A stretch of 64,000 nucleotides of DNA, from the NCBI GenBank assembly GCA_963662465.1, contig OY759599.1:4416001-4480000 (forward strand), in the 5' to 3' direction. The number at the start of each line of letters is the position of its first letter. The first letter of the stretch is position 1. The notes under the pieces are model-generated. The model had not been told where the DNA came from and made no database searches. It saw only the letters and a program-made list of their open reading frames with translations. Below, piece after piece: positions 1 to 10,361 of this stretch. The position numbers and the translations under genes were made by a program. The DNA is from Desulfatiglandales bacterium. Its GTDB lineage: Bacteria; Desulfobacterota; DSM-4660; Desulfatiglandales; Desulfatiglandaceae.

Positions 1-1116
1 CTTTCTTACCGGTGCAACTATTTTCAACGTAATAAGACGTTTCCCGCAAACTGGGCAACAATCCGGTTGCTCGTCGCTTCGCTGCTGCCACAGACTCTGC
101 CAGTCCAGAAATTCCGTATCTTCAAGTGCCGGTTGTCCCAGTATTTCCCGGCAGCGTGCCAGTTCTTTTTTTGCGTTGTGATGGTAAAGGCCGTATGAAC
201 GCACCATCATGGAATTCGCCAGGGGAACGTGTTGCAGGTAGCGGCCGATAAAGGTTTGAATCGGCAAGGTAATGAGTCTTACCCGCTCACGACCGTAATT
301 GAAGGTGACGTTTCCGTTTTCAATGCGGAAGATGCGTTTATTTGAGATCGGTCCGCCTCTCAGATACCGGGCCAGGTAAATTAAGACCCCTTCTCCGTAT
401 GAATAGGTCTCCTTGAGTTTAACGTTCCACTTCTTACGGCGCCCCAACTTATTAAACAGGTTTCGCGCCTGCTGCGGTCCCATGCCTTCGGGCAGAATCA
501 GTTCTTCACGGGCAAGGGCTTTTCTCAAATAGTGGAGATATTTTCCTCGAAAAACCGCCCGGACAATGCCAAACGGCAGAAGAAACGTTTTTGATGAAGC
601 AATCCACTCGCCGGCGGACAGACCACCGGCCGTCACCAAACAATGCAAATGGGGATGAAAATCCAATTTTCGGCTCCAGGTATGCAACGAGGCAATGATG
701 CCGACTTTGGCCCCCAAATGCTTCGGGTCTCCAAGGAGTTCGGAAAGGGTCTCGGTCGCGCTTTTGAACAGCAGATTAGCCATGACTTTACGGTTCAGCC
801 GCCATAAGTCATGCAATTCATCGGAGATGGTGAAAATAACGTGGAAATGCTCGGCACTCAGGAGTCGGGCCTTTTGTTTCGCCAGCCACCGCTCAACCTG
901 GGTGAAGGCGCAGAGTGGGCACATACGGTGTTTACACGAGTTATACCAGACCCTCTGGAAGTGACCATCCGGACATGCCTGGACGTGCCCCCCCAGAATG
1001 GACGTGCGGCAGGACATCAGACGATGAGCCGCCTCACGAATATGTTCCGGAAGACAATGCGTCTGATTATAGAGGGCATAGCCAAGAAGAAAGATGCCCT
1101 GAATCGTCGTTTCCAC
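1..1116 (-). CDS. IS91-family (HUH/Y2) transposase, copy 6; 3' end lies outside the window
   Basis: Sequence matches the other copies at a 1609-bp offset. Confidence 0.9.
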   Translation of the reverse strand, partial: METTIQGIFLLGYALYNQTHCLPEHIREAAHRLMSCRTSILGGHVQACPDGHFQRVWYNSCKHRMCPLCAFTQVERWLAKQKARLLSAEHFHVIFTISDELHDLWRLNRKVMANLLFKSATETLSELLGDPKHLGAKVGIIASLHTWSRKLDFHPHLHCLVTAGGLSAGEWIASSKTFLLPFGIVRAVFRGKYLHYLRKALAREELILPEGMGPQQARNLFNKLGRRKKWNVKLKETYSYGEGVLIYLARYLRGGPISNKRIFRIENGNVTFNYGRERVRLITLPIQTFIGRYLQHVPLANSMMVRSYGLYHHNAKKELARCREILGQPALEDTEFLDWQSLWQQRSDEQPDCCPVCGKRLITLKIVAPVRK

Positions 1117-1177
1117 TGCGATTTCACCTATTTCTACCAATTTTCGACGTTAAGTTCCCCCGCTGTCCAGCGGGTCT

Positions 1178-1308
1178 GTCCAACGTTTAGTTAACTGGAA
1201 AACGGGTTCAAAAAAATATATTATCATTCCAGCTGGTGACTTCGTAGGAACCAACGCATTTCGGTTTATCTCCCAATACCAGTTTTCCAGTTCAACGGGG
1301 TGTTGGAC
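1178..1308 (-). other. attC: attC site (131 bp)
   Basis: Minus strand: R'' GTCCAAC, 5-nt spacer, L'' GTTGAAC, stem TGGAAAAC...GTTTTCCA, L' GTTAAC, 5-nt spacer, R' GTTGGAC. There is one extra base in L'' and a second unpaired base further up the stem, as in canonical attC. Confidence 0.92.
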
Positions 1309-1549
1309 AGAGCCGCGGGTCATCAGCACATACTTTGCCGGAAGCAGGAGATCGGCTATGGAGATTAAGGGAGCTTCTCAGCTGTCGCGTGACCTCTTTT
1401 TAACCCGTCATGGCCGGTTAAGGATGATAAAATTCCTGCTTTCAATTGCATGATCCGTCAAAAACCCTGAAATATCGCGTTATTTATCCCTTTACCAAAC
1501 GCCTCGCCATTCAAGTGCCTTTTTGAATATGCTCATGTTTATTATCGTT

Positions 1550-2725
1550 TTACGCTGCCTGTGCATATACCGTATCCGGGTCCTTATTGAACCTCGGAAG
1601 ACTTTTTGACTTTCTTACCGGTGCAACTATTTTCAACGTAATAAGACGTTTCCCGCAAACTGGGCAACAATCCGGTTGCTCGTCGCTTCGCTGCTGCCAC
1701 AGACTCTGCCAGTCCAGAAATTCCGTATCTTCAAGTGCCGGTTGTCCCAGTATTTCCCGGCAGCGTGCCAGTTCTTTTTTTGCGTTGTGATGGTAAAGGC
1801 CGTATGAACGCACCATCATGGAATTCGCCAGGGGAACGTGTTGCAGGTAGCGGCCGATAAAGGTTTGAATCGGCAAGGTAATGAGTCTTACCCGCTCACG
1901 ACCGTAATTGAAGGTGACGTTTCCGTTTTCAATGCGGAAGATGCGTTTATTTGAGATCGGTCCGCCTCTCAGATACCGGGCCAGGTAAATTAAGACCCCT
2001 TCTCCGTATGAATAGGTCTCCTTGAGTTTAACGTTCCACTTCTTACGGCGCCCCAACTTATTAAACAGGTTTCGCGCCTGCTGCGGTCCCATGCCTTCGG
2101 GCAGAATCAGTTCTTCACGGGCAAGGGCTTTTCTCAAATAGTGGAGATATTTTCCTCGAAAAACCGCCCGGACAATGCCAAACGGCAGAAGAAACGTTTT
2201 TGATGAAGCAATCCACTCGCCGGCGGACAGACCACCGGCCGTCACCAAACAATGCAAATGGGGATGAAAATCCAATTTTCGGCTCCAGGTATGCAACGAG
2301 GCAATGATGCCGACTTTGGCCCCCAAATGCTTCGGGTCTCCAAGGAGTTCGGAAAGGGTCTCGGTCGCGCTTTTGAACAGCAGATTAGCCATGACTTTAC
2401 GGTTCAGCCGCCATAAGTCATGCAATTCATCGGAGATGGTGAAAATAACGTGGAAATGCTCGGCACTCAGGAGTCGGGCCTTTTGTTTCGCCAGCCACCG
2501 CTCAACCTGGGTGAAGGCGCAGAGTGGGCACATACGGTGTTTACACGAGTTATACCAGACCCTCTGGAAGTGACCATCCGGACATGCCTGGACGTGCCCC
2601 CCCAGAATGGACGTGCGGCAGGACATCAGACGATGAGCCGCCTCACGAATATGTTCCGGAAGACAATGCGTCTGATTATAGAGGGCATAGCCAAGAAGAA
2701 AGATGCCCTGAATCGTCGTTTCCAC
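1550..2725 (-). CDS. IS91-family (HUH/Y2) rolling-circle transposase, copy 5
   Basis: Zn-binding CRT..GGH...C...NSCKHRMCPLC, HVIFT, HUH motif HPHLH, Y2 motif YLARY, C-terminal CPVCG. A GTG start with AGGTGA RBS is preferred over the TTG at 2749. Confidence 0.95.
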   Translation of the reverse strand: METTIQGIFLLGYALYNQTHCLPEHIREAAHRLMSCRTSILGGHVQACPDGHFQRVWYNSCKHRMCPLCAFTQVERWLAKQKARLLSAEHFHVIFTISDELHDLWRLNRKVMANLLFKSATETLSELLGDPKHLGAKVGIIASLHTWSRKLDFHPHLHCLVTAGGLSAGEWIASSKTFLLPFGIVRAVFRGKYLHYLRKALAREELILPEGMGPQQARNLFNKLGRRKKWNVKLKETYSYGEGVLIYLARYLRGGPISNKRIFRIENGNVTFNYGRERVRLITLPIQTFIGRYLQHVPLANSMMVRSYGLYHHNAKKELARCREILGQPALEDTEFLDWQSLWQQRSDEQPDCCPVCGKRLITLKIVAPVRKSKSLPRFNKDPDTVYAQAA

Positions 2726-2786
2726 TGCGATTTCACCTATTTCTACCAATTTTCGACGTTAAGTTCCCCCGCTGTCCAGCGGGTCT

Positions 2787-2917
2787 GTCCAACGTTTAGT
2801 TAACTGGAAAACGGGTTCAAAAAAATATATTATCATTCCAGCTGGTGACTTCGTAGGAACCAACGCATTTCGGTTTATCTCCCAATACCAGTTTTCCAGT
2901 TCAACGGGGTGTTGGAC
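2787..2917 (-). other. attC: attC site
   Basis: Same as 1178-1308. Confidence 0.92.
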
Positions 2918-3158
2918 AGAGCCGCGGGTCATCAGCACATACTTTGCCGGAAGCAGGAGATCGGCTATGGAGATTAAGGGAGCTTCTCAGCTGTCGCGTG
3001 ACCTCTTTTTAACCCGTCATGGCCGGTTAAGGATGATAAAATTCCTGCTTTCAATTGCATGATCCGTCAAAAACCCTGAAATATCGCGTTATTTATCCCT
3101 TTACCAAACGCCTCGCCATTCAAGTGCCTTTTTGAATATGCTCATGTTTATTATCGTT

Positions 3159-4334
3159 TTACGCTGCCTGTGCATATACCGTATCCGGGTCCTTATTGAA
3201 CCTCGGAAGACTTTTTGACTTTCTTACCGGTGCAACTATTTTCAACGTAATAAGACGTTTCCCGCAAACTGGGCAACAATCCGGTTGCTCGTCGCTTCGC
3301 TGCTGCCACAGACTCTGCCAGTCCAGAAATTCCGTATCTTCAAGTGCCGGTTGTCCCAGTATTTCCCGGCAGCGTGCCAGTTCTTTTTTTGCGTTGTGAT
3401 GGTAAAGGCCGTATGAACGCACCATCATGGAATTCGCCAGGGGAACGTGTTGCAGGTAGCGGCCGATAAAGGTTTGAATCGGCAAGGTAATGAGTCTTAC
3501 CCGCTCACGACCGTAATTGAAGGTGACGTTTCCGTTTTCAATGCGGAAGATGCGTTTATTTGAGATCGGTCCGCCTCTCAGATACCGGGCCAGGTAAATT
3601 AAGACCCCTTCTCCGTATGAATAGGTCTCCTTGAGTTTAACGTTCCACTTCTTACGGCGCCCCAACTTATTAAACAGGTTTCGCGCCTGCTGCGGTCCCA
3701 TGCCTTCGGGCAGAATCAGTTCTTCACGGGCAAGGGCTTTTCTCAAATAGTGGAGATATTTTCCTCGAAAAACCGCCCGGACAATGCCAAACGGCAGAAG
3801 AAACGTTTTTGATGAAGCAATCCACTCGCCGGCGGACAGACCACCGGCCGTCACCAAACAATGCAAATGGGGATGAAAATCCAATTTTCGGCTCCAGGTA
3901 TGCAACGAGGCAATGATGCCGACTTTGGCCCCCAAATGCTTCGGGTCTCCAAGGAGTTCGGAAAGGGTCTCGGTCGCGCTTTTGAACAGCAGATTAGCCA
4001 TGACTTTACGGTTCAGCCGCCATAAGTCATGCAATTCATCGGAGATGGTGAAAATAACGTGGAAATGCTCGGCACTCAGGAGTCGGGCCTTTTGTTTCGC
4101 CAGCCACCGCTCAACCTGGGTGAAGGCGCAGAGTGGGCACATACGGTGTTTACACGAGTTATACCAGACCCTCTGGAAGTGACCATCCGGACATGCCTGG
4201 ACGTGCCCCCCCAGAATGGACGTGCGGCAGGACATCAGACGATGAGCCGCCTCACGAATATGTTCCGGAAGACAATGCGTCTGATTATAGAGGGCATAGC
4301 CAAGAAGAAAGATGCCCTGAATCGTCGTTTCCAC
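3159..4334 (-). CDS. IS91-family transposase, copy 4
   Basis: Identical translation. Confidence 0.95.
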   Translation of the reverse strand: METTIQGIFLLGYALYNQTHCLPEHIREAAHRLMSCRTSILGGHVQACPDGHFQRVWYNSCKHRMCPLCAFTQVERWLAKQKARLLSAEHFHVIFTISDELHDLWRLNRKVMANLLFKSATETLSELLGDPKHLGAKVGIIASLHTWSRKLDFHPHLHCLVTAGGLSAGEWIASSKTFLLPFGIVRAVFRGKYLHYLRKALAREELILPEGMGPQQARNLFNKLGRRKKWNVKLKETYSYGEGVLIYLARYLRGGPISNKRIFRIENGNVTFNYGRERVRLITLPIQTFIGRYLQHVPLANSMMVRSYGLYHHNAKKELARCREILGQPALEDTEFLDWQSLWQQRSDEQPDCCPVCGKRLITLKIVAPVRKSKSLPRFNKDPDTVYAQAA

Positions 4335-4395
4335 TGCGATTTCACCTATTTCTACCAATTTTCGACGTTAAGTTCCCCCGCTGTCCAGCGGGTCT

Positions 4396-4526
4396 GTCCA
4401 ACGTTTAGTTAACTGGAAAACGGGTTCAAAAAAATATATTATCATTCCAGCTGGTGACTTCGTAGGAACCAACGCATTTCGGTTTATCTCCCAATACCAG
4501 TTTTCCAGTTCAACGGGGTGTTGGAC
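4396..4526 (-). other. attC: attC site
   Basis: Same as 1178-1308. Confidence 0.92.
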
Positions 4527-4767
4527 AGAGCCGCGGGTCATCAGCACATACTTTGCCGGAAGCAGGAGATCGGCTATGGAGATTAAGGGAGCTTCTCAGC
4601 TGTCGCGTGACCTCTTTTTAACCCGTCATGGCCGGTTAAGGATGATAAAATTCCTGCTTTCAATTGCATGATCCGTCAAAAACCCTGAAATATCGCGTTA
4701 TTTATCCCTTTACCAAACGCCTCGCCATTCAAGTGCCTTTTTGAATATGCTCATGTTTATTATCGTT

Positions 4768-5943
4768 TTACGCTGCCTGTGCATATACCGTATCCGGGTC
4801 CTTATTGAACCTCGGAAGACTTTTTGACTTTCTTACCGGTGCAACTATTTTCAACGTAATAAGACGTTTCCCGCAAACTGGGCAACAATCCGGTTGCTCG
4901 TCGCTTCGCTGCTGCCACAGACTCTGCCAGTCCAGAAATTCCGTATCTTCAAGTGCCGGTTGTCCCAGTATTTCCCGGCAGCGTGCCAGTTCTTTTTTTG
5001 CGTTGTGATGGTAAAGGCCGTATGAACGCACCATCATGGAATTCGCCAGGGGAACGTGTTGCAGGTAGCGGCCGATAAAGGTTTGAATCGGCAAGGTAAT
5101 GAGTCTTACCCGCTCACGACCGTAATTGAAGGTGACGTTTCCGTTTTCAATGCGGAAGATGCGTTTATTTGAGATCGGTCCGCCTCTCAGATACCGGGCC
5201 AGGTAAATTAAGACCCCTTCTCCGTATGAATAGGTCTCCTTGAGTTTAACGTTCCACTTCTTACGGCGCCCCAACTTATTAAACAGGTTTCGCGCCTGCT
5301 GCGGTCCCATGCCTTCGGGCAGAATCAGTTCTTCACGGGCAAGGGCTTTTCTCAAATAGTGGAGATATTTTCCTCGAAAAACCGCCCGGACAATGCCAAA
5401 CGGCAGAAGAAACGTTTTTGATGAAGCAATCCACTCGCCGGCGGACAGACCACCGGCCGTCACCAAACAATGCAAATGGGGATGAAAATCCAATTTTCGG
5501 CTCCAGGTATGCAACGAGGCAATGATGCCGACTTTGGCCCCCAAATGCTTCGGGTCTCCAAGGAGTTCGGAAAGGGTCTCGGTCGCGCTTTTGAACAGCA
5601 GATTAGCCATGACTTTACGGTTCAGCCGCCATAAGTCATGCAATTCATCGGAGATGGTGAAAATAACGTGGAAATGCTCGGCACTCAGGAGTCGGGCCTT
5701 TTGTTTCGCCAGCCACCGCTCAACCTGGGTGAAGGCGCAGAGTGGGCACATACGGTGTTTACACGAGTTATACCAGACCCTCTGGAAGTGACCATCCGGA
5801 CATGCCTGGACGTGCCCCCCCAGAATGGACGTGCGGCAGGACATCAGACGATGAGCCGCCTCACGAATATGTTCCGGAAGACAATGCGTCTGATTATAGA
5901 GGGCATAGCCAAGAAGAAAGATGCCCTGAATCGTCGTTTCCAC
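4768..5943 (-). CDS. IS91-family transposase, copy 3
   Basis: Identical translation. Confidence 0.95.
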   Translation of the reverse strand: METTIQGIFLLGYALYNQTHCLPEHIREAAHRLMSCRTSILGGHVQACPDGHFQRVWYNSCKHRMCPLCAFTQVERWLAKQKARLLSAEHFHVIFTISDELHDLWRLNRKVMANLLFKSATETLSELLGDPKHLGAKVGIIASLHTWSRKLDFHPHLHCLVTAGGLSAGEWIASSKTFLLPFGIVRAVFRGKYLHYLRKALAREELILPEGMGPQQARNLFNKLGRRKKWNVKLKETYSYGEGVLIYLARYLRGGPISNKRIFRIENGNVTFNYGRERVRLITLPIQTFIGRYLQHVPLANSMMVRSYGLYHHNAKKELARCREILGQPALEDTEFLDWQSLWQQRSDEQPDCCPVCGKRLITLKIVAPVRKSKSLPRFNKDPDTVYAQAA

Positions 5944-6004
5944 TGCGATTTCACCTATTTCTACCAATTTTCGACGTTAAGTTCCCCCGCTGTCCAGCGG
6001 GTCT

Positions 6005-6135
6005 GTCCAACGTTTAGTTAACTGGAAAACGGGTTCAAAAAAATATATTATCATTCCAGCTGGTGACTTCGTAGGAACCAACGCATTTCGGTTTATCTCC
6101 CAATACCAGTTTTCCAGTTCAACGGGGTGTTGGAC
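6005..6135 (-). other. attC: attC site
   Basis: Same as 1178-1308. Confidence 0.92.
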
Positions 6136-6376
6136 AGAGCCGCGGGTCATCAGCACATACTTTGCCGGAAGCAGGAGATCGGCTATGGAGATTAAGGGAG
6201 CTTCTCAGCTGTCGCGTGACCTCTTTTTAACCCGTCATGGCCGGTTAAGGATGATAAAATTCCTGCTTTCAATTGCATGATCCGTCAAAAACCCTGAAAT
6301 ATCGCGTTATTTATCCCTTTACCAAACGCCTCGCCATTCAAGTGCCTTTTTGAATATGCTCATGTTTATTATCGTT

Positions 6377-7552
6377 TTACGCTGCCTGTGCATATACCGT
6401 ATCCGGGTCCTTATTGAACCTCGGAAGACTTTTTGACTTTCTTACCGGTGCAACTATTTTCAACGTAATAAGACGTTTCCCGCAAACTGGGCAACAATCC
6501 GGTTGCTCGTCGCTTCGCTGCTGCCACAGACTCTGCCAGTCCAGAAATTCCGTATCTTCAAGTGCCGGTTGTCCCAGTATTTCCCGGCAGCGTGCCAGTT
6601 CTTTTTTTGCGTTGTGATGGTAAAGGCCGTATGAACGCACCATCATGGAATTCGCCAGGGGAACGTGTTGCAGGTAGCGGCCGATAAAGGTTTGAATCGG
6701 CAAGGTAATGAGTCTTACCCGCTCACGACCGTAATTGAAGGTGACGTTTCCGTTTTCAATGCGGAAGATGCGTTTATTTGAGATCGGTCCGCCTCTCAGA
6801 TACCGGGCCAGGTAAATTAAGACCCCTTCTCCGTATGAATAGGTCTCCTTGAGTTTAACGTTCCACTTCTTACGGCGCCCCAACTTATTAAACAGGTTTC
6901 GCGCCTGCTGCGGTCCCATGCCTTCGGGCAGAATCAGTTCTTCACGGGCAAGGGCTTTTCTCAAATAGTGGAGATATTTTCCTCGAAAAACCGCCCGGAC
7001 AATGCCAAACGGCAGAAGAAACGTTTTTGATGAAGCAATCCACTCGCCGGCGGACAGACCACCGGCCGTCACCAAACAATGCAAATGGGGATGAAAATCC
7101 AATTTTCGGCTCCAGGTATGCAACGAGGCAATGATGCCGACTTTGGCCCCCAAATGCTTCGGGTCTCCAAGGAGTTCGGAAAGGGTCTCGGTCGCGCTTT
7201 TGAACAGCAGATTAGCCATGACTTTACGGTTCAGCCGCCATAAGTCATGCAATTCATCGGAGATGGTGAAAATAACGTGGAAATGCTCGGCACTCAGGAG
7301 TCGGGCCTTTTGTTTCGCCAGCCACCGCTCAACCTGGGTGAAGGCGCAGAGTGGGCACATACGGTGTTTACACGAGTTATACCAGACCCTCTGGAAGTGA
7401 CCATCCGGACATGCCTGGACGTGCCCCCCCAGAATGGACGTGCGGCAGGACATCAGACGATGAGCCGCCTCACGAATATGTTCCGGAAGACAATGCGTCT
7501 GATTATAGAGGGCATAGCCAAGAAGAAAGATGCCCTGAATCGTCGTTTCCAC
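6377..7552 (-). CDS. IS91-family transposase, copy 2
   Basis: Identical translation. Confidence 0.95.
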   Translation of the reverse strand: METTIQGIFLLGYALYNQTHCLPEHIREAAHRLMSCRTSILGGHVQACPDGHFQRVWYNSCKHRMCPLCAFTQVERWLAKQKARLLSAEHFHVIFTISDELHDLWRLNRKVMANLLFKSATETLSELLGDPKHLGAKVGIIASLHTWSRKLDFHPHLHCLVTAGGLSAGEWIASSKTFLLPFGIVRAVFRGKYLHYLRKALAREELILPEGMGPQQARNLFNKLGRRKKWNVKLKETYSYGEGVLIYLARYLRGGPISNKRIFRIENGNVTFNYGRERVRLITLPIQTFIGRYLQHVPLANSMMVRSYGLYHHNAKKELARCREILGQPALEDTEFLDWQSLWQQRSDEQPDCCPVCGKRLITLKIVAPVRKSKSLPRFNKDPDTVYAQAA

Positions 7553-7613
7553 TGCGATTTCACCTATTTCTACCAATTTTCGACGTTAAGTTCCCCCGCT
7601 GTCCAGCGGGTCT

Positions 7614-7744
7614 GTCCAACGTTTAGTTAACTGGAAAACGGGTTCAAAAAAATATATTATCATTCCAGCTGGTGACTTCGTAGGAACCAACGCATTTCGG
7701 TTTATCTCCCAATACCAGTTTTCCAGTTCAACGGGGTGTTGGAC
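7614..7744 (-). other. attC: attC site
   Basis: Same as 1178-1308. Confidence 0.92.
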
Positions 7745-7985
7745 AGAGCCGCGGGTCATCAGCACATACTTTGCCGGAAGCAGGAGATCGGCTATGGAGA
7801 TTAAGGGAGCTTCTCAGCTGTCGCGTGACCTCTTTTTAACCCGTCATGGCCGGTTAAGGATGATAAAATTCCTGCTTTCAATTGCATGATCCGTCAAAAA
7901 CCCTGAAATATCGCGTTATTTATCCCTTTACCAAACGCCTCGCCATTCAAGTGCCTTTTTGAATATGCTCATGTTTATTATCGTT

Positions 7986-9161
7986 TTACGCTGCCTGTGC
8001 ATATACCGTATCCGGGTCCTTATTGAACCTCGGAAGACTTTTTGACTTTCTTACCGGTGCAACTATTTTCAACGTAATAAGACGTTTCCCGCAAACTGGG
8101 CAACAATCCGGTTGCTCGTCGCTTCGCTGCTGCCACAGACTCTGCCAGTCCAGAAATTCCGTATCTTCAAGTGCCGGTTGTCCCAGTATTTCCCGGCAGC
8201 GTGCCAGTTCTTTTTTTGCGTTGTGATGGTAAAGGCCGTATGAACGCACCATCATGGAATTCGCCAGGGGAACGTGTTGCAGGTAGCGGCCGATAAAGGT
8301 TTGAATCGGCAAGGTAATGAGTCTTACCCGCTCACGACCGTAATTGAAGGTGACGTTTCCGTTTTCAATGCGGAAGATGCGTTTATTTGAGATCGGTCCG
8401 CCTCTCAGATACCGGGCCAGGTAAATTAAGACCCCTTCTCCGTATGAATAGGTCTCCTTGAGTTTAACGTTCCACTTCTTACGGCGCCCCAACTTATTAA
8501 ACAGGTTTCGCGCCTGCTGCGGTCCCATGCCTTCGGGCAGAATCAGTTCTTCACGGGCAAGGGCTTTTCTCAAATAGTGGAGATATTTTCCTCGAAAAAC
8601 CGCCCGGACAATGCCAAACGGCAGAAGAAACGTTTTTGATGAAGCAATCCACTCGCCGGCGGACAGACCACCGGCCGTCACCAAACAATGCAAATGGGGA
8701 TGAAAATCCAATTTTCGGCTCCAGGTATGCAACGAGGCAATGATGCCGACTTTGGCCCCCAAATGCTTCGGGTCTCCAAGGAGTTCGGAAAGGGTCTCGG
8801 TCGCGCTTTTGAACAGCAGATTAGCCATGACTTTACGGTTCAGCCGCCATAAGTCATGCAATTCATCGGAGATGGTGAAAATAACGTGGAAATGCTCGGC
8901 ACTCAGGAGTCGGGCCTTTTGTTTCGCCAGCCACCGCTCAACCTGGGTGAAGGCGCAGAGTGGGCACATACGGTGTTTACACGAGTTATACCAGACCCTC
9001 TGGAAGTGACCATCCGGACATGCCTGGACGTGCCCCCCCAGAATGGACGTGCGGCAGGACATCAGACGATGAGCCGCCTCACGAATATGTTCCGGAAGAC
9101 AATGCGTCTGATTATAGAGGGCATAGCCAAGAAGAAAGATGCCCTGAATCGTCGTTTCCAC
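7986..9161 (-). CDS. IS91-family transposase, copy 1 (attI-proximal)
   Basis: Identical translation. Confidence 0.95.
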   Translation of the reverse strand: METTIQGIFLLGYALYNQTHCLPEHIREAAHRLMSCRTSILGGHVQACPDGHFQRVWYNSCKHRMCPLCAFTQVERWLAKQKARLLSAEHFHVIFTISDELHDLWRLNRKVMANLLFKSATETLSELLGDPKHLGAKVGIIASLHTWSRKLDFHPHLHCLVTAGGLSAGEWIASSKTFLLPFGIVRAVFRGKYLHYLRKALAREELILPEGMGPQQARNLFNKLGRRKKWNVKLKETYSYGEGVLIYLARYLRGGPISNKRIFRIENGNVTFNYGRERVRLITLPIQTFIGRYLQHVPLANSMMVRSYGLYHHNAKKELARCREILGQPALEDTEFLDWQSLWQQRSDEQPDCCPVCGKRLITLKIVAPVRKSKSLPRFNKDPDTVYAQAA

Positions 9162-9222
9162 TGCGATTTCACCTATTTCTACCAATTTTCGACGTTAAGT
9201 TCCCCCGCTGTCCAGCGGGTCT

Positions 9223-9330
9223 GTCCAACAGTCCTAATAGGTGGAAAATTTTCCACCTATTAGCCCTATAACATGGAAAAAATTCCATCTATTGCCATAT
9301 TGAAGTCTAAAACATGGAAAAAATCCTATT
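9223..9330 (-). other. attI: attI site (core G/TTGGAC at 9229-9223; upstream extent uncertain)
   Basis: Similarity to the cassette stops exactly at the G of GTT. The site is immediately upstream of intI and is followed by a palindrome and direct repeats. Confidence 0.8.
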
Positions 9331-9365
9331 GACTTTTCCATCTATTGCGCAATATCGTCAATAGC

Positions 9366-10361
9366 ATGGAAAAATCGAAAAAATTCCGACCGGATCCCAA
9401 ACTTCGTCTTATGGATCAGGTTCGACAAGTTCTACGCTATCACCACTACGCCTATCGCACAGAACAAACTTATTGCGATTGGATCATGCGCTATATCCGG
9501 TACCATGGGAGCAATACCCATCCTCGGAATATGGGTAAGAAAGAAATCGAAGCCTTTCTGTCCCATTTGGCGGTTCAACAACACGTTGCCGCCTCCACCC
9601 AGCGCCAAGCTCTTAATGCGATTATTTTCCTATACAAAAGAGTCCTTGATATTCCGGTTGACGAAGATCTTGACCCTGTCCGCGCCAAAAGACGCTCCCG
9701 CCCCCCGGTTGTCATGAGCCAACGGGAGGTTTCCATTGTTTTGGAACACATGCACGGTTTGCATCTCCTCATGGCGAAAATCCTGTACGGCAGCGGCCTG
9801 CGGTTAATGGAGTGCATCCGACTCCGTATTCGCGATCTTGATTTTGAACGCGGGCTTATTTACGTTCGAGCCGCAAAAGGCGGTAAGGACCGTACCACCC
9901 TTTTTCCGGAATCCCTCCACTCCCTCATGAAAAATCAGGTTGAAGCGGTTGAAAAACTTCATCGGCAGGACCTGGCGGATGGATATGGGGATGTTTATCT
10001 TCCAAACGCCCTTGCCCGCAAATACCCCAATGCCGCCAAATCCCTGGGTTGGCAATATGTATTTCCCTCAAAAAAACGCAGCAAGGATCCCCGATCAGGT
10101 AAAACAATGCGGCATCATGTTCTTGAATCCGGGCTCCAAAAAGCCGTGAAGGCCGCTGTTGGAAAGGCGGGACTTACAAAACCCGTCGGTTGTCATACCT
10201 TTCGCCATTCTTTTGCAACGCATTTGCTTGAAAACGGGGTGAACATTCGGGTGGTTCAGGAATTGTTGGGCCATGCGGATGTGAAGACCACCGAGATCTA
10301 CACCCACGTAATGGAAAAGGACATTTCCGTGGTTCGAAGTCCTTTGGATGGGCTTTTGTGA
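9366..10361 (+). CDS. intI: Integron integrase (tyrosine recombinase)
   Basis: SAM-like N-terminus (YAYRTEQTY, ASTQRQALNA), GLRLMEC, KGGKDR, the IntI-specific insertion VYLPNALARKYPNA...WQYVFPS, HTFRHSFATHLL, LLGH, TTEIYTHV. ATG 9366 is preferred over TTG 9345. Confidence 0.97.
   Translation: MEKSKKFRPDPKLRLMDQVRQVLRYHHYAYRTEQTYCDWIMRYIRYHGSNTHPRNMGKKEIEAFLSHLAVQQHVAASTQRQALNAIIFLYKRVLDIPVDEDLDPVRAKRRSRPPVVMSQREVSIVLEHMHGLHLLMAKILYGSGLRLMECIRLRIRDLDFERGLIYVRAAKGGKDRTTLFPESLHSLMKNQVEAVEKLHRQDLADGYGDVYLPNALARKYPNAAKSLGWQYVFPSKKRSKDPRSGKTMRHHVLESGLQKAVKAAVGKAGLTKPVGCHTFRHSFATHLLENGVNIRVVQELLGHADVKTTEIYTHVMEKDISVVRSPLDGLL

Follow-up and report, generated by a model that had tools for sequence, protein, structure and literature searches.

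The cassette array at the locus

The stretch analysed here, referred to as the window, comprises 64,000 nucleotides (nt) of the genome of a Desulfatiglandales bacterium (assembly GCA_963662465.1, contig OY759599.1, positions 4,416,001 to 4,480,000) and opens with an integron, in which a run of identical gene cassettes, each encoding one IS91-family transposase of the HUH/Y2 type, abuts the predicted attachment site attI beside the integron integrase gene intI. The features of this cassette unit and of its surroundings are the following.

7620..9228, minus strand: cassette unit 1, 1609 bp, 100% identity between units
6011..7619, 4402..6010, 2793..4401 and 1184..2792, minus strand: cassette units 2 to 5, 100% identity, spacing 1609
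1..1183, minus strand: cassette unit 6, partial, truncated at the window edge (units 7 and 8 are beyond it)
7986..9185, minus strand: IS91-family HUH/Y2 transposase gene of unit 1 (NF033538, Pfam)
6377..7576, 4768..5967, 3159..4358 and 1550..2749, minus strand: repeats of the transposase gene, with a partial one at 1..1140
9204..9228, minus strand: terIS-like 5' end, consisting of TT-GGAC (9228-9223), AGA and the hairpin CCCGCT-GGAC-AGCGGG (9219-9204), repeated every 1609 bp
7792..7804, minus strand: conserved motif TTAATCTCCATAG of the 3' untranslated region, 47 nt before R'', repeated every 1609 bp
7614..7744, minus strand: attC of unit 1, 131 nt (fold, covariation, model R1)
6005..6135, 4396..4526, 2787..2917 and 1178..1308, minus strand: repeats of the attC
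9229..9344, minus strand: predicted attI region, with the G of the G|TT crossover at 9229, where the tandem periodicity stops
9345..10361, plus strand: intI, integron integrase gene (TIGR02249), with TTG at 9345 and the first ATG at 9366

Comparison of each base with the base 1609 positions on identified positions 1 to 9229 as a perfect tandem with zero mismatches and a period of 1609 bp, and the periodicity was found to end exactly at 9229. The original prediction of 1609-bp units which start at the TT of G/TTGGAC, the first of them abutting an attI, is hereby borne out. A repeat finder reported six in-register copies of the unit in the window, five full and one partial, and within the whole genome, which is assembled as one 8.16-Mb contig, eight identical units were counted (C1:4412357-4425228, minus strand); Tandem Repeats Finder, the longest period of which is 500, did not pick up the array. 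When read on the minus strand from 9228 to 7620, unit 1 starts with TTGGAC directly behind the G at 9229 and continues with a 399-codon frame (7986-9185), a 240-nt untranslated stretch and a 131-nt inverted repeat, ending with ...AACTAAACG. Rfam matched no family in the window, and promoter-like hexamers were not above chance (6 as compared to 3.8 +/- 1.9 expected).

The intI product matches TIGR02249 over its full length (1-315) with 445.7 bits (cut-off 265) and aligns with the Vibrio cholerae integrase VchIntIA (2a3v) with 307 bits over residues 25-335, no gap being found through the IntI-specific segment (ALxxKYPxA...W.YVFPS), which is the segment that tells IntI from Xer recombinases. Its catalytic motifs (around R, K, H-x-x-R, H and Y) are identical to those of VchIntIA, so that the intact intI claimed for this position is indeed present; as its start codon the ATG at 9366 is more likely than the TTG at 9345. 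The start of the array (9229/9228) is 117-138 nt away from intI, with 116 palindrome-rich nt between the G and the gene. This predicted attI region contains a 28-bp perfect palindrome, TAATAGGTGGAAAATTTTCCACCTATTA, 5 nt off the crossover, together with repeated ATGGAAAAA motifs up to intI and several inverted repeats of the ATGGAAAAA(A)TTCCAT type (window 9231-9345).

The transposase

Each unit possesses one open frame, which is located on the cassette strand and the product of which matches NF033538 with 357 bits (cut-off 125) at positions 2-355 of 356. Pfam matches were obtained for Y2_Tnp (PF04986) and for Zn_Tnp_IS91 (PF14319), the latter representing the N-terminal zinc-binding domain. 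An alignment with 17 homologues of 52-87% identity revealed the histidines of the HPHLH motif (H162/H164/H166) and the tyrosines Y255 and Y259 to be invariant. The true start of the protein is probably the GTG at codon 9 (9161), yielding 391 amino acids, as database relatives usually possess this length and as the upstream frame contains stops in other genomic copies. Between the subfamilies of this genome described below, a dN/dS of 0.06-0.12 was determined over 391 codons, which suggests that the transposase is kept functional by purifying selection. One intact HUH/Y2 transposase per unit in the normal cassette orientation, as well as the lack of an own tyrosine recombinase, had been stated in the original prediction, and both statements stand: the unit comprises a single gene and sits beside a canonical IntI.

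The attC at the 3' end

The inverted repeat at the 3' end of unit 1 shows the full layout of an attC, namely R'' GTCCAAC (7744-7738), a 5-nt spacer, L'' GTTGAAC..., the loop, L' GTTAAC, the spacer TAAAC and R' GTTGGAC (7620-7614), the TTGGAC of R' being already part of the following unit. When folded as single-stranded DNA, its bottom strand reaches -20.9 kcal/mol (z -3.5; 0 of 200 shuffled sequences fold as well). Its R stem, 11 bp long, is separated on either side by four unpaired spacer nt from the L stem, which has a single bulged base and carries a variable loop; when the element is circular or in tandem, the R stem lengthens to about 18 bp.

For an analysis of covariation, 32 sites behind this transposase were aligned, of which 28 come from other genomes and four from this one. 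The R and L stems were found to be paired in 77.5% of the cells as compared to 62.5 +/- 1.1% after shuffling, 13 of the 14 L-stem pairs show changes on both sides, and the covariation score amounts to 0.377 (shuffled, 0.137; slid partners, 0.03-0.16). The outer four R pairs show weaker pairing in place, as is expected, since behind the crossover these bases belong to the next cassette.

From these 32 attCs exclusively a covariance model (R1) was built, which was used instead of that of IntegronFinder and which includes the window copy in its training set. In the 64-kb window R1 returned five sites only, all of them at the attC positions of the array and with 72.5 bits each. It further matched the attCs of unrelated cassettes in the arrays of this genome, which are shorter, GC-rich sites, with 27-38 bits over the full model length, and those of aadA2, blaIMP-6 and aacA4 from a clinical class 1 integron with 23-35 bits, while the scan of the IS1294 and IS91 loci gave no match. 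As R1 finds unrelated host and class 1 attCs, the window site is an attC by the yardstick of textbook sites, and the covariance scoring proposed earlier for 1178-1308 was therefore positive, since this site scores and covaries. A home-made fold-based attC scanner was too noisy (nine matches in 8.4 kb, one of them clearly real) and was not used.

IS91-like ends within the cassette

The 5' end of the cassette consists of GTT, GGAC, AGA and a 6-bp hairpin (CCCGCT/AGCGGG). For comparison, the left end of IS1294 reads GAAC, 3-4 nt (CAC(G)) and the hairpin GCAGCC-TGGC-GGCTGC, and that of IS91 reads CGAG-TAG followed by the hairpin of IS1294, whereby the boundaries of IS1294 were delimited from independent insertions (query 183 to 1870-1876 of L083:200-2300, many records) and an empty site. 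In the available text of PMC13181058 terIS is described as a single subterminal palindrome adjoining the cleavage site GTTC, or CTCG in IS91, and the left ends of IS1294 and IS91 as read here agree with this layout. The same arrangement, a tetranucleotide beside one subterminal palindrome, was found at the 5' end of the cassette, which from its sequence appears to be built like an IS91 terIS with GTT in front, a construction which is new here. As GTT is set before the IS91-type tetranucleotide, the first seven bases read as the integron core site GTTGGAC. The relatives described below possess GAAC, GGAC, GTAC, GCAC or GAGC, 3 nt and a hairpin of varying, GC-rich to AT-rich sequence, and at 30 of the 44 distinct family 5' ends the 7-mer is followed after 3-4 nt by a perfect stem of 5 bp or more (random GTT sites, 82 of 3870).

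Of 45 distinct 3' regions of the family, 35 contain CCATAG, mostly as A/T-rich...TCTCCATAG, as compared to 69 of 2954 control stretches; its distance to the following R'' is 5-48 nt, with a median of 29. This motif resembles the right-terminal AATTTCCTATAC / AATTCCTATCG of IS1294 and IS91 (AATTTCCTATACGT of IS1294, AATTCCTATCGAT of IS91), a kinship that is to be read as a resemblance and not as demonstrated homology. An oriIS terminus that abuts a target of the CTTG/GTTC type was not found, as the element ends in the attC and its flanks are remainders of core sites. One relative (L062, 1377-1900) shows a canonical-looking TTCCTATCG in place of CCATAG, which is followed by an apparent further cysteine-rich open frame.

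Copies in this genome

A tblastn search of the genome revealed 17 copies of the transposase gene and no other IS91-type gene. The copies form three subfamilies with 99-100%, 81-84% and 73% nucleotide identity, and their left junctions are the following.

Copies T1 (this window), B and H: directly at the attI of a full-length intI
Copy E: at a 33-60-nt attI-like remnant without intI
Copies A, F and G: behind the R1-scored attC of another cassette
Copy I (truncated): behind an attC-like hairpin seen by eye, unscored by R1
Copies C and D: behind an attC and a group II intron, the latter sitting 6 nt inside the core
Seven copies: inside the tandem

A cassette position behind an attI or attC is hence given for 16 of the 17 copies, the remaining one being copy I, and the element is the first cassette at three of the four full-length intI genes of the genome. 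All left junctions without an intron (T1, B, H, E, A, F, G and I) read G|TTGGAC, seven of them being independent, as F and G share a duplicated segment. The right junctions read ...AAACG|TT plus the remainder of the target core (TTATGT, TTCGCG, TTGGCG, TTCTCG, TTGTGG). Copy B (L087, G000:C1:3286000-3293000) belongs to a second integron, the intI of which is 97% identical and the attI of which is nearly identical; there, one 100%-identical cassette copy stands first and the next cassette starts with TTATGT. The integron of copy H possesses a 52%-identical IntI and a different attI. A contig from a different sequencing run, assigned to the same coded organism, matches the window unit without a difference over 329 nt and passes into the attI type of copy H; in that run the identical cassette hence stands at a different attI.

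Copy E (L090, G000:C1:3747483 onward) heads a cassette array, and the 33-60-nt piece in front of it, which resembles the attI of copy H and has no intI nearby, also precedes relatives in two further loci (L009 and L010). The attI of copies H and E, although unrelated to that of the window, has an analogous palindrome, TTATCAGG...CCTGATAA, 7 nt off its crossover, and both attI types resemble a hairpin, a spacer and GTT, i.e., half an attC. The group II introns (Rfam group-II-D1D4-7 and Intron_gpII; L088 2196-4700, L089 3311-4083) are in cassette orientation and lie between a host-type attC and copies C and D, 6 nt after the core G.

Relatives in other genomes

At E <= 1e-20, 3286 relatives of the transposase were recovered, the best ones mostly on contigs of 1.4-2.5 kb, and a scan of one genome per species yielded 433 encoding stretches, from which 74 loci were kept. 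Within these, R1 gave 97 matches, 96 of them on the transposase strand. An attC match within 650 nt downstream was identified for 43 of the 60 near-full-length genes with at least 500 nt of flank, and for nine more with a shorter flank, a count in which 28 loci are training members and several others close copies of those. R'' was compared with the GTT 7-mers in the 350 nt upstream of the gene: a 7-mer exactly reverse-complementary to it is present in 32 of 42 distinct loci, and one with no more than a single mismatch in 41 of 42, where about 2% per locus would be expected by chance. The pairs covary (GTCCAAC/GTTGGAC, GTTCAAC/GTTGAAC, GTACAAC/GTTGTAC, GTGCAAC/GTTGCAC and GCTCAAC/GTTGAGC), and likewise the first bases of the window cassette, TTGGAC, are complementary to its own R'' GTCCAAC, as results from circular permutation at G|TT. 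An IntI-like gene was found within 1.6 kb upstream in 15 of the 60 loci, being divergent in 12, and tandem copies occur in five other genomes (L012, L037, L051/L052, L070 and L078). One of these is the complete chromosome of a Natroniella sp. (L050-L053) with at least six copies, three of them in tandem with a period of 1627. Upstream of one Natroniella copy a 367-amino-acid IntI-like tyrosine recombinase and a 407-amino-acid open reading frame without Pfam family are encoded, and the insertion sites in this chromosome resemble attCs, their cores being CCTAAC/GTTAGG.

In a quick maximum-likelihood tree of 68 rows, in which one two-gene row is present twice under two labels, the 60 one-gene rows are located on one side of a branch with a support of 93 in the Shimodaira-Hasegawa-like approximate likelihood ratio test (SH-aLRT), the transposases of two-gene elements are separate (99), and IS91 and IS1294 form a third group (99). 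The one-gene group comprises members from Thermodesulfobacteriota, Nitrospirota, Nitrospinota, Acidobacteriota, Pseudomonadota, Bacillota, Chloroflexota and others. That homologues would be bounded by a GTT core and an attC and would form a clade, as had been proposed for examination, is what the about 60 one-gene rows show, and the case named beforehand as contradicting the prediction, a close homologue inserted as an ordinary IS91 element, was not found among the 17 genomic copies and the loci inspected. On the 10.5-kb Thiolapillus plasmid pTBH10 (L084, 2367-3746) a 39%-identical transposase has matches to the attC model on either side (36 bits before and 51 bits behind it), which places the family in a cassette array on a small plasmid as well.

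A relative in clinical class 1 integrons

Clinical Enterobacterales carry on IncN plasmids the order intI1 - aac(6')-Ib - blaIMP-6 - aadA2 - IS91-family transposase - qacEdelta1. Here, a 37%-identical relative (L095, 4404-5865) occupies, as an exact cassette of 1462 bp, the place between the attC of aadA2 and the 3' conserved segment. This cassette starts with G|TTGAAC-TTG-hairpin after the aadA2 attC, possesses the R'' GTTCAAC and ends with ...TAAGCG|TTAGAT at the start of the 3' conserved segment. The filled form was found in 11 plasmid records and thousands of records join aadA2 and qacEdelta1 directly, the difference being exactly 1462 bp. The transposase of this unit clusters inside the one-gene clade and the unit has the ends of the family.

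Judged from the description in the paper and not from a record name, this unit is probably the "ISVsa10 insertion" of In1547 (PMC11049973), an IS91-like gene in cassette position that is mentioned there in passing in the available text. Equally brief mentions of IS91-like genes in or at a cassette position with an attC concern ISShvi3 in a Shewanella integron (PMC9229058) and ISCR28 next to sul4 (PMC12772301), both likened to the window clade by their published descriptions only, and the original sul4 paper draws an ISCR transposase in cassette position (PMC5732528, available part). The wordings used for the three elements are "IS insertion", "a new gene cassette structure" or "data not shown", and in the accessible portions of these papers ends, family, tandems and mechanism were not analysed. 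Hence, the original prediction went too far in assuming that no known element is itself the cassette, as PMC12772301, PMC11049973 and PMC9229058 mention such genes. In the literature that was searched, no treatment of IS91-type transposases as an integron cassette family came to light.

Proposed mechanism and alternative explanations

The anatomy of the unit comprises the exact cassette format with its attC, the placement of the crossover, a conserved enzyme, IS91-like ends and recurrent tandems. As best overall explanation, and on balance rather probable, the unit would be an IS91-family rolling-circle element in exact integron-cassette format. The element is best filed as one that joins two known kinds, an integron cassette on an IS91 chassis, with a well-supported structure and a plausible mechanism.

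The suggested mechanism assumes that the resident IntI inserts a circular form of the element at attI (attI x attC, crossover G|TT), whereby the new copy would come to lie in the first position, in which the integron promoter would express it. Such an integration is considered quite likely, since insertions were found at the exact cassette point in two types of attI and in attCs, one of the latter belonging to a class 1 integron, since the flanks are core remainders and not IS91 targets, and since the 3' end possesses every feature that IntI is known to need; to our knowledge, no HUH enzyme makes use of attC features. For the preceding step it is suggested, by analogy to IS91 and with a little more doubt than trust, that the transposase introduces a nick into the element, be it integrated or circular, and that rolling-circle synthesis then displaces the bottom strand. 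In the available text of PMC13181058, only the bottom-strand single-stranded circle of IS91 is reported as inserted, where "bottom" is by our inference from the flanks of the insertion sequence the tnpA-antisense strand. In the window element the strand complementary to the transposase gene corresponds to the recombinogenic attC strand, an orientation that would be compatible with the rolling-circle route. Cuts at GTT|GGAC (terIS-like) and at G|TTGGAC (IntI) would give one and the same circle, and as the donor copy would stay in place, each round would add a copy. Copying out combined with pasting in by IntI at attI would produce the eight identical units of the window integron, and the copies at other sites of the attI and attC type as well. 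Such a division of labour between IntI and the HUH enzyme is plausible and fits the conserved terIS-like end, the purifying selection and the recurrent tandems. Replicative behaviour would further agree with the higher word depth of the unit contigs as compared to the unique flank, given below, and with the junction of the identical unit to the other attI type in a different run. In its complete form, i.e., a hybrid self-amplifying cassette of which the HUH enzyme copies out a bottom-strand single-stranded circle, IntI pastes this circle at attI and the promoter re-expresses the transposase, the model is a tentative one and rather unlikely to hold in every part.

A number of observations weigh against this reading. 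The bulged L-box base, which in textbook attCs is a G on the bottom strand, is a C here, while copy H has a G. In copy C (L088 ~6300-6320, G000:C1:3341303) the end ...AACTAAACG is followed by ATGGTT, i.e., G|AT and not G|TT, while every other full copy has GTT at the right junction. The oriIS-like motif sits 47 nt inside R'' and not at the end of the element; if CCATAG marked the origin nick, a terIS-to-oriIS circle would be without the attC and full units would arise from circles or tandems only. For 17 of the 60 relatives no attC match was obtained, of which seven are AT-rich Natroniella copies with an attC visible by eye and the 1627-bp tandem period, and of which the others inspected (L011, L026, L033, L047, L062, L067, L081) are decayed, interrupted or diverged, with integron-like surroundings. 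The second of the two tandem copies of L012 (5434-7000), which also counts among the 17, stops at GTTC|A inside R'' and has no attC; as an aside, cutting at a mirror-image counterpart of the terIS-like site would be consistent with such an end. Two genomes with copies possess no integron integrase above the family cut-off (Natroniella, an IntI-like recombinase only; Kistimonas, none), and the junction sequence reads alike for an IntI crossover (G|TT) and for an HUH cut two bases away (GTT|GGAC). The eight identical copies could equally come from unequal crossing-over once two copies exist. In a public run with 80% of the sampled words, two unit contigs showed word depths of 424 and 423 and a 7.7-kb contig of unique flank one of 33, which corresponds to a ratio of about 12.7 as compared to 9-10 near-identical copies in the assembly, a rough estimate as contig depth is not copy number. 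Being of the order of the assembly copies, this ratio argues against a large free pool of the element. No terminal overlaps, and hence no sign of circular assembly, were found in 13 short contigs.

Some of these points would equally be explained if the element was an autonomous IS91-type insertion sequence that homes to integron cores by its own HUH enzyme, with the attC-like end being an oriIS palindrome, the tandems resulting from failed termination and IntI being uninvolved. IS91-family elements use tetranucleotide targets (CTTG, GTTC, GTCC), make no target duplication and possess subterminal palindromes (PMC13181058, available text), and the cassette bases after GTT (GGAC/GAAC) are the complements of IS91 targets, followed by the terIS-like hairpin; the two genomes without canonical IntI, the L012 copy and junctions that fit either enzyme count on this side as well. 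This explanation is nevertheless judged improbable, as the right flanks are remainders of target cores (TTAGGC, TTAGAT, TTCGCG...) and not tetranucleotides of the GAAC/CAAG type, as the insertions are at the exact cassette point of double-stranded attI sites of two different integrases, and as the complete R''-L''-L'-R' layout with bulge and strong covariation is recognized by a model that finds textbook attCs and none in IS1294 or IS91. In addition, none of the 17 genomic copies or the inspected loci was outside an integron-like context.

A passive cassette, i.e., an IS91 gene once captured with an attC and brought to an eightfold array via IntI duplication or RecA-dependent unequal crossing-over, would require no copying enzyme, and identical tandem repeats readily expand via homologous recombination. 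Strong purifying selection across subfamilies with invariant catalytic motifs, the conservation of the non-coding terIS-like hairpin and of the CCATAG motif across seven phyla, and 17 copies in three subfamilies of one genome with the first position taken at three of four full-length intI genes all speak against such passivity, which is hence regarded as quite improbable. The same holds for the recurrence of tandems in five other genomes and for the finding that in three self-compared array regions of this genome no other cassette was amplified in perfect tandem. That the array is an artefact, with a circular or multi-copy element having been collapsed or expanded during assembly, can hardly be credited: eight copies at 100% identity are hard to count and their number rests on one assembly, yet the genome is one 8.16-Mb contig, the rough word-depth ratio given above argues against an artefact, and the tandems of relatives are found in independent assemblies including the complete Natroniella chromosome.

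Comparison with known systems and implications

Like the cassettes of class 1 integrons and of the Vibrio cholerae system (IntIA and its repeats, VCR), the preferred element, a cassette on an IS91 chassis, starts with the TT of G|TT, carries one gene in array orientation and ends with a 131-nt attC that contains R''/R', L''/L', a 5-nt spacer and a bulged base, and it is located at an attI beside a divergent intact intI. It differs from usual cassettes in that its cargo is a mobility enzyme under purifying selection with an IS91-type 5' terminus, in that its R stem extends to about 18 bp in the circle or tandem and in that it forms eight identical tandem copies. With the IS91 family (IS91, IS801, IS1294/IS1294b) and ISCR elements it shares NF033538, the HUH motif and two tyrosines, a terIS-like left end, an A/T-rich ...TCC(A/T)TA(G/C) motif resembling the oriIS terminus, the lack of a target duplication and a size of 1.5-1.7 kb. 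However, the window transposase is only 23-29% identical to those of IS1294 and IS91, its 3' end is an attC, which is absent from both, the flanks follow integron cores and not CTTG/GTTC, and copies were found only in integron-type arrays. ISCR1 adjoins an array and is, unlike the window element, not in cassette format.

ISfinder contains an IS91 subgroup with a tyrosine recombinase upstream of the transposase, and such two-gene elements were seen in L012 and L096-L098. The two-gene copy of L012 ends with a CCCCATAG motif, R'' GTTCAAC, a short attC and G|TT and shares arrays with the one-gene elements. Two-gene elements differ in that they carry their own IntI-like recombinase and in that their transposases are 27-40% identical and group apart in the tree (SH-aLRT 99). 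IS1111-attC elements and group II introns homing to attC are likewise mobile elements specialised on integron sites, but they interrupt attCs and carry none, whereas the window element is bounded as a cassette and leaves neighbouring attCs intact.

Integron cassettes are usually regarded as passive cargo relying on rare single-stranded DNA. A cassette family which encodes a rolling-circle-type single-strand nickase, retains IS91-type ends joined to integron sites and accumulates in tandem at attI in unrelated bacteria would either parasitise the integron platform or help it by supplying its substrate, and if the proposed mechanism is true, it would be the first integron cassette that makes its own recombination substrate. 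The GTT core with its folded attC and the GTTC-plus-hairpin ends of IS91 would then be linked mechanistically and perhaps historically. IS91 is known for one-ended transposition, and read-through past the terIS-like end could, under the same premise, copy neighbouring DNA plus an attC, thus providing a route for making or moving other cassettes; how cassettes are made is a still unexplained step of integron biology. The family is widespread and barely described, and it represents a testable link between two single-strand-based mobility systems which may bear on cassette amplification and formation. A relative is already present in a clinical class 1 integron, annotated there merely as an insertion of an insertion sequence.

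Two repeats were observed in the other arrays of this genome. A 2.2-kb group II intron element recurs many times in the array of L088/L089, and just upstream of copy A a tandem repeat of about 261 bp is located (about four copies, 99% alike; G000:C1:3202473-3203508).

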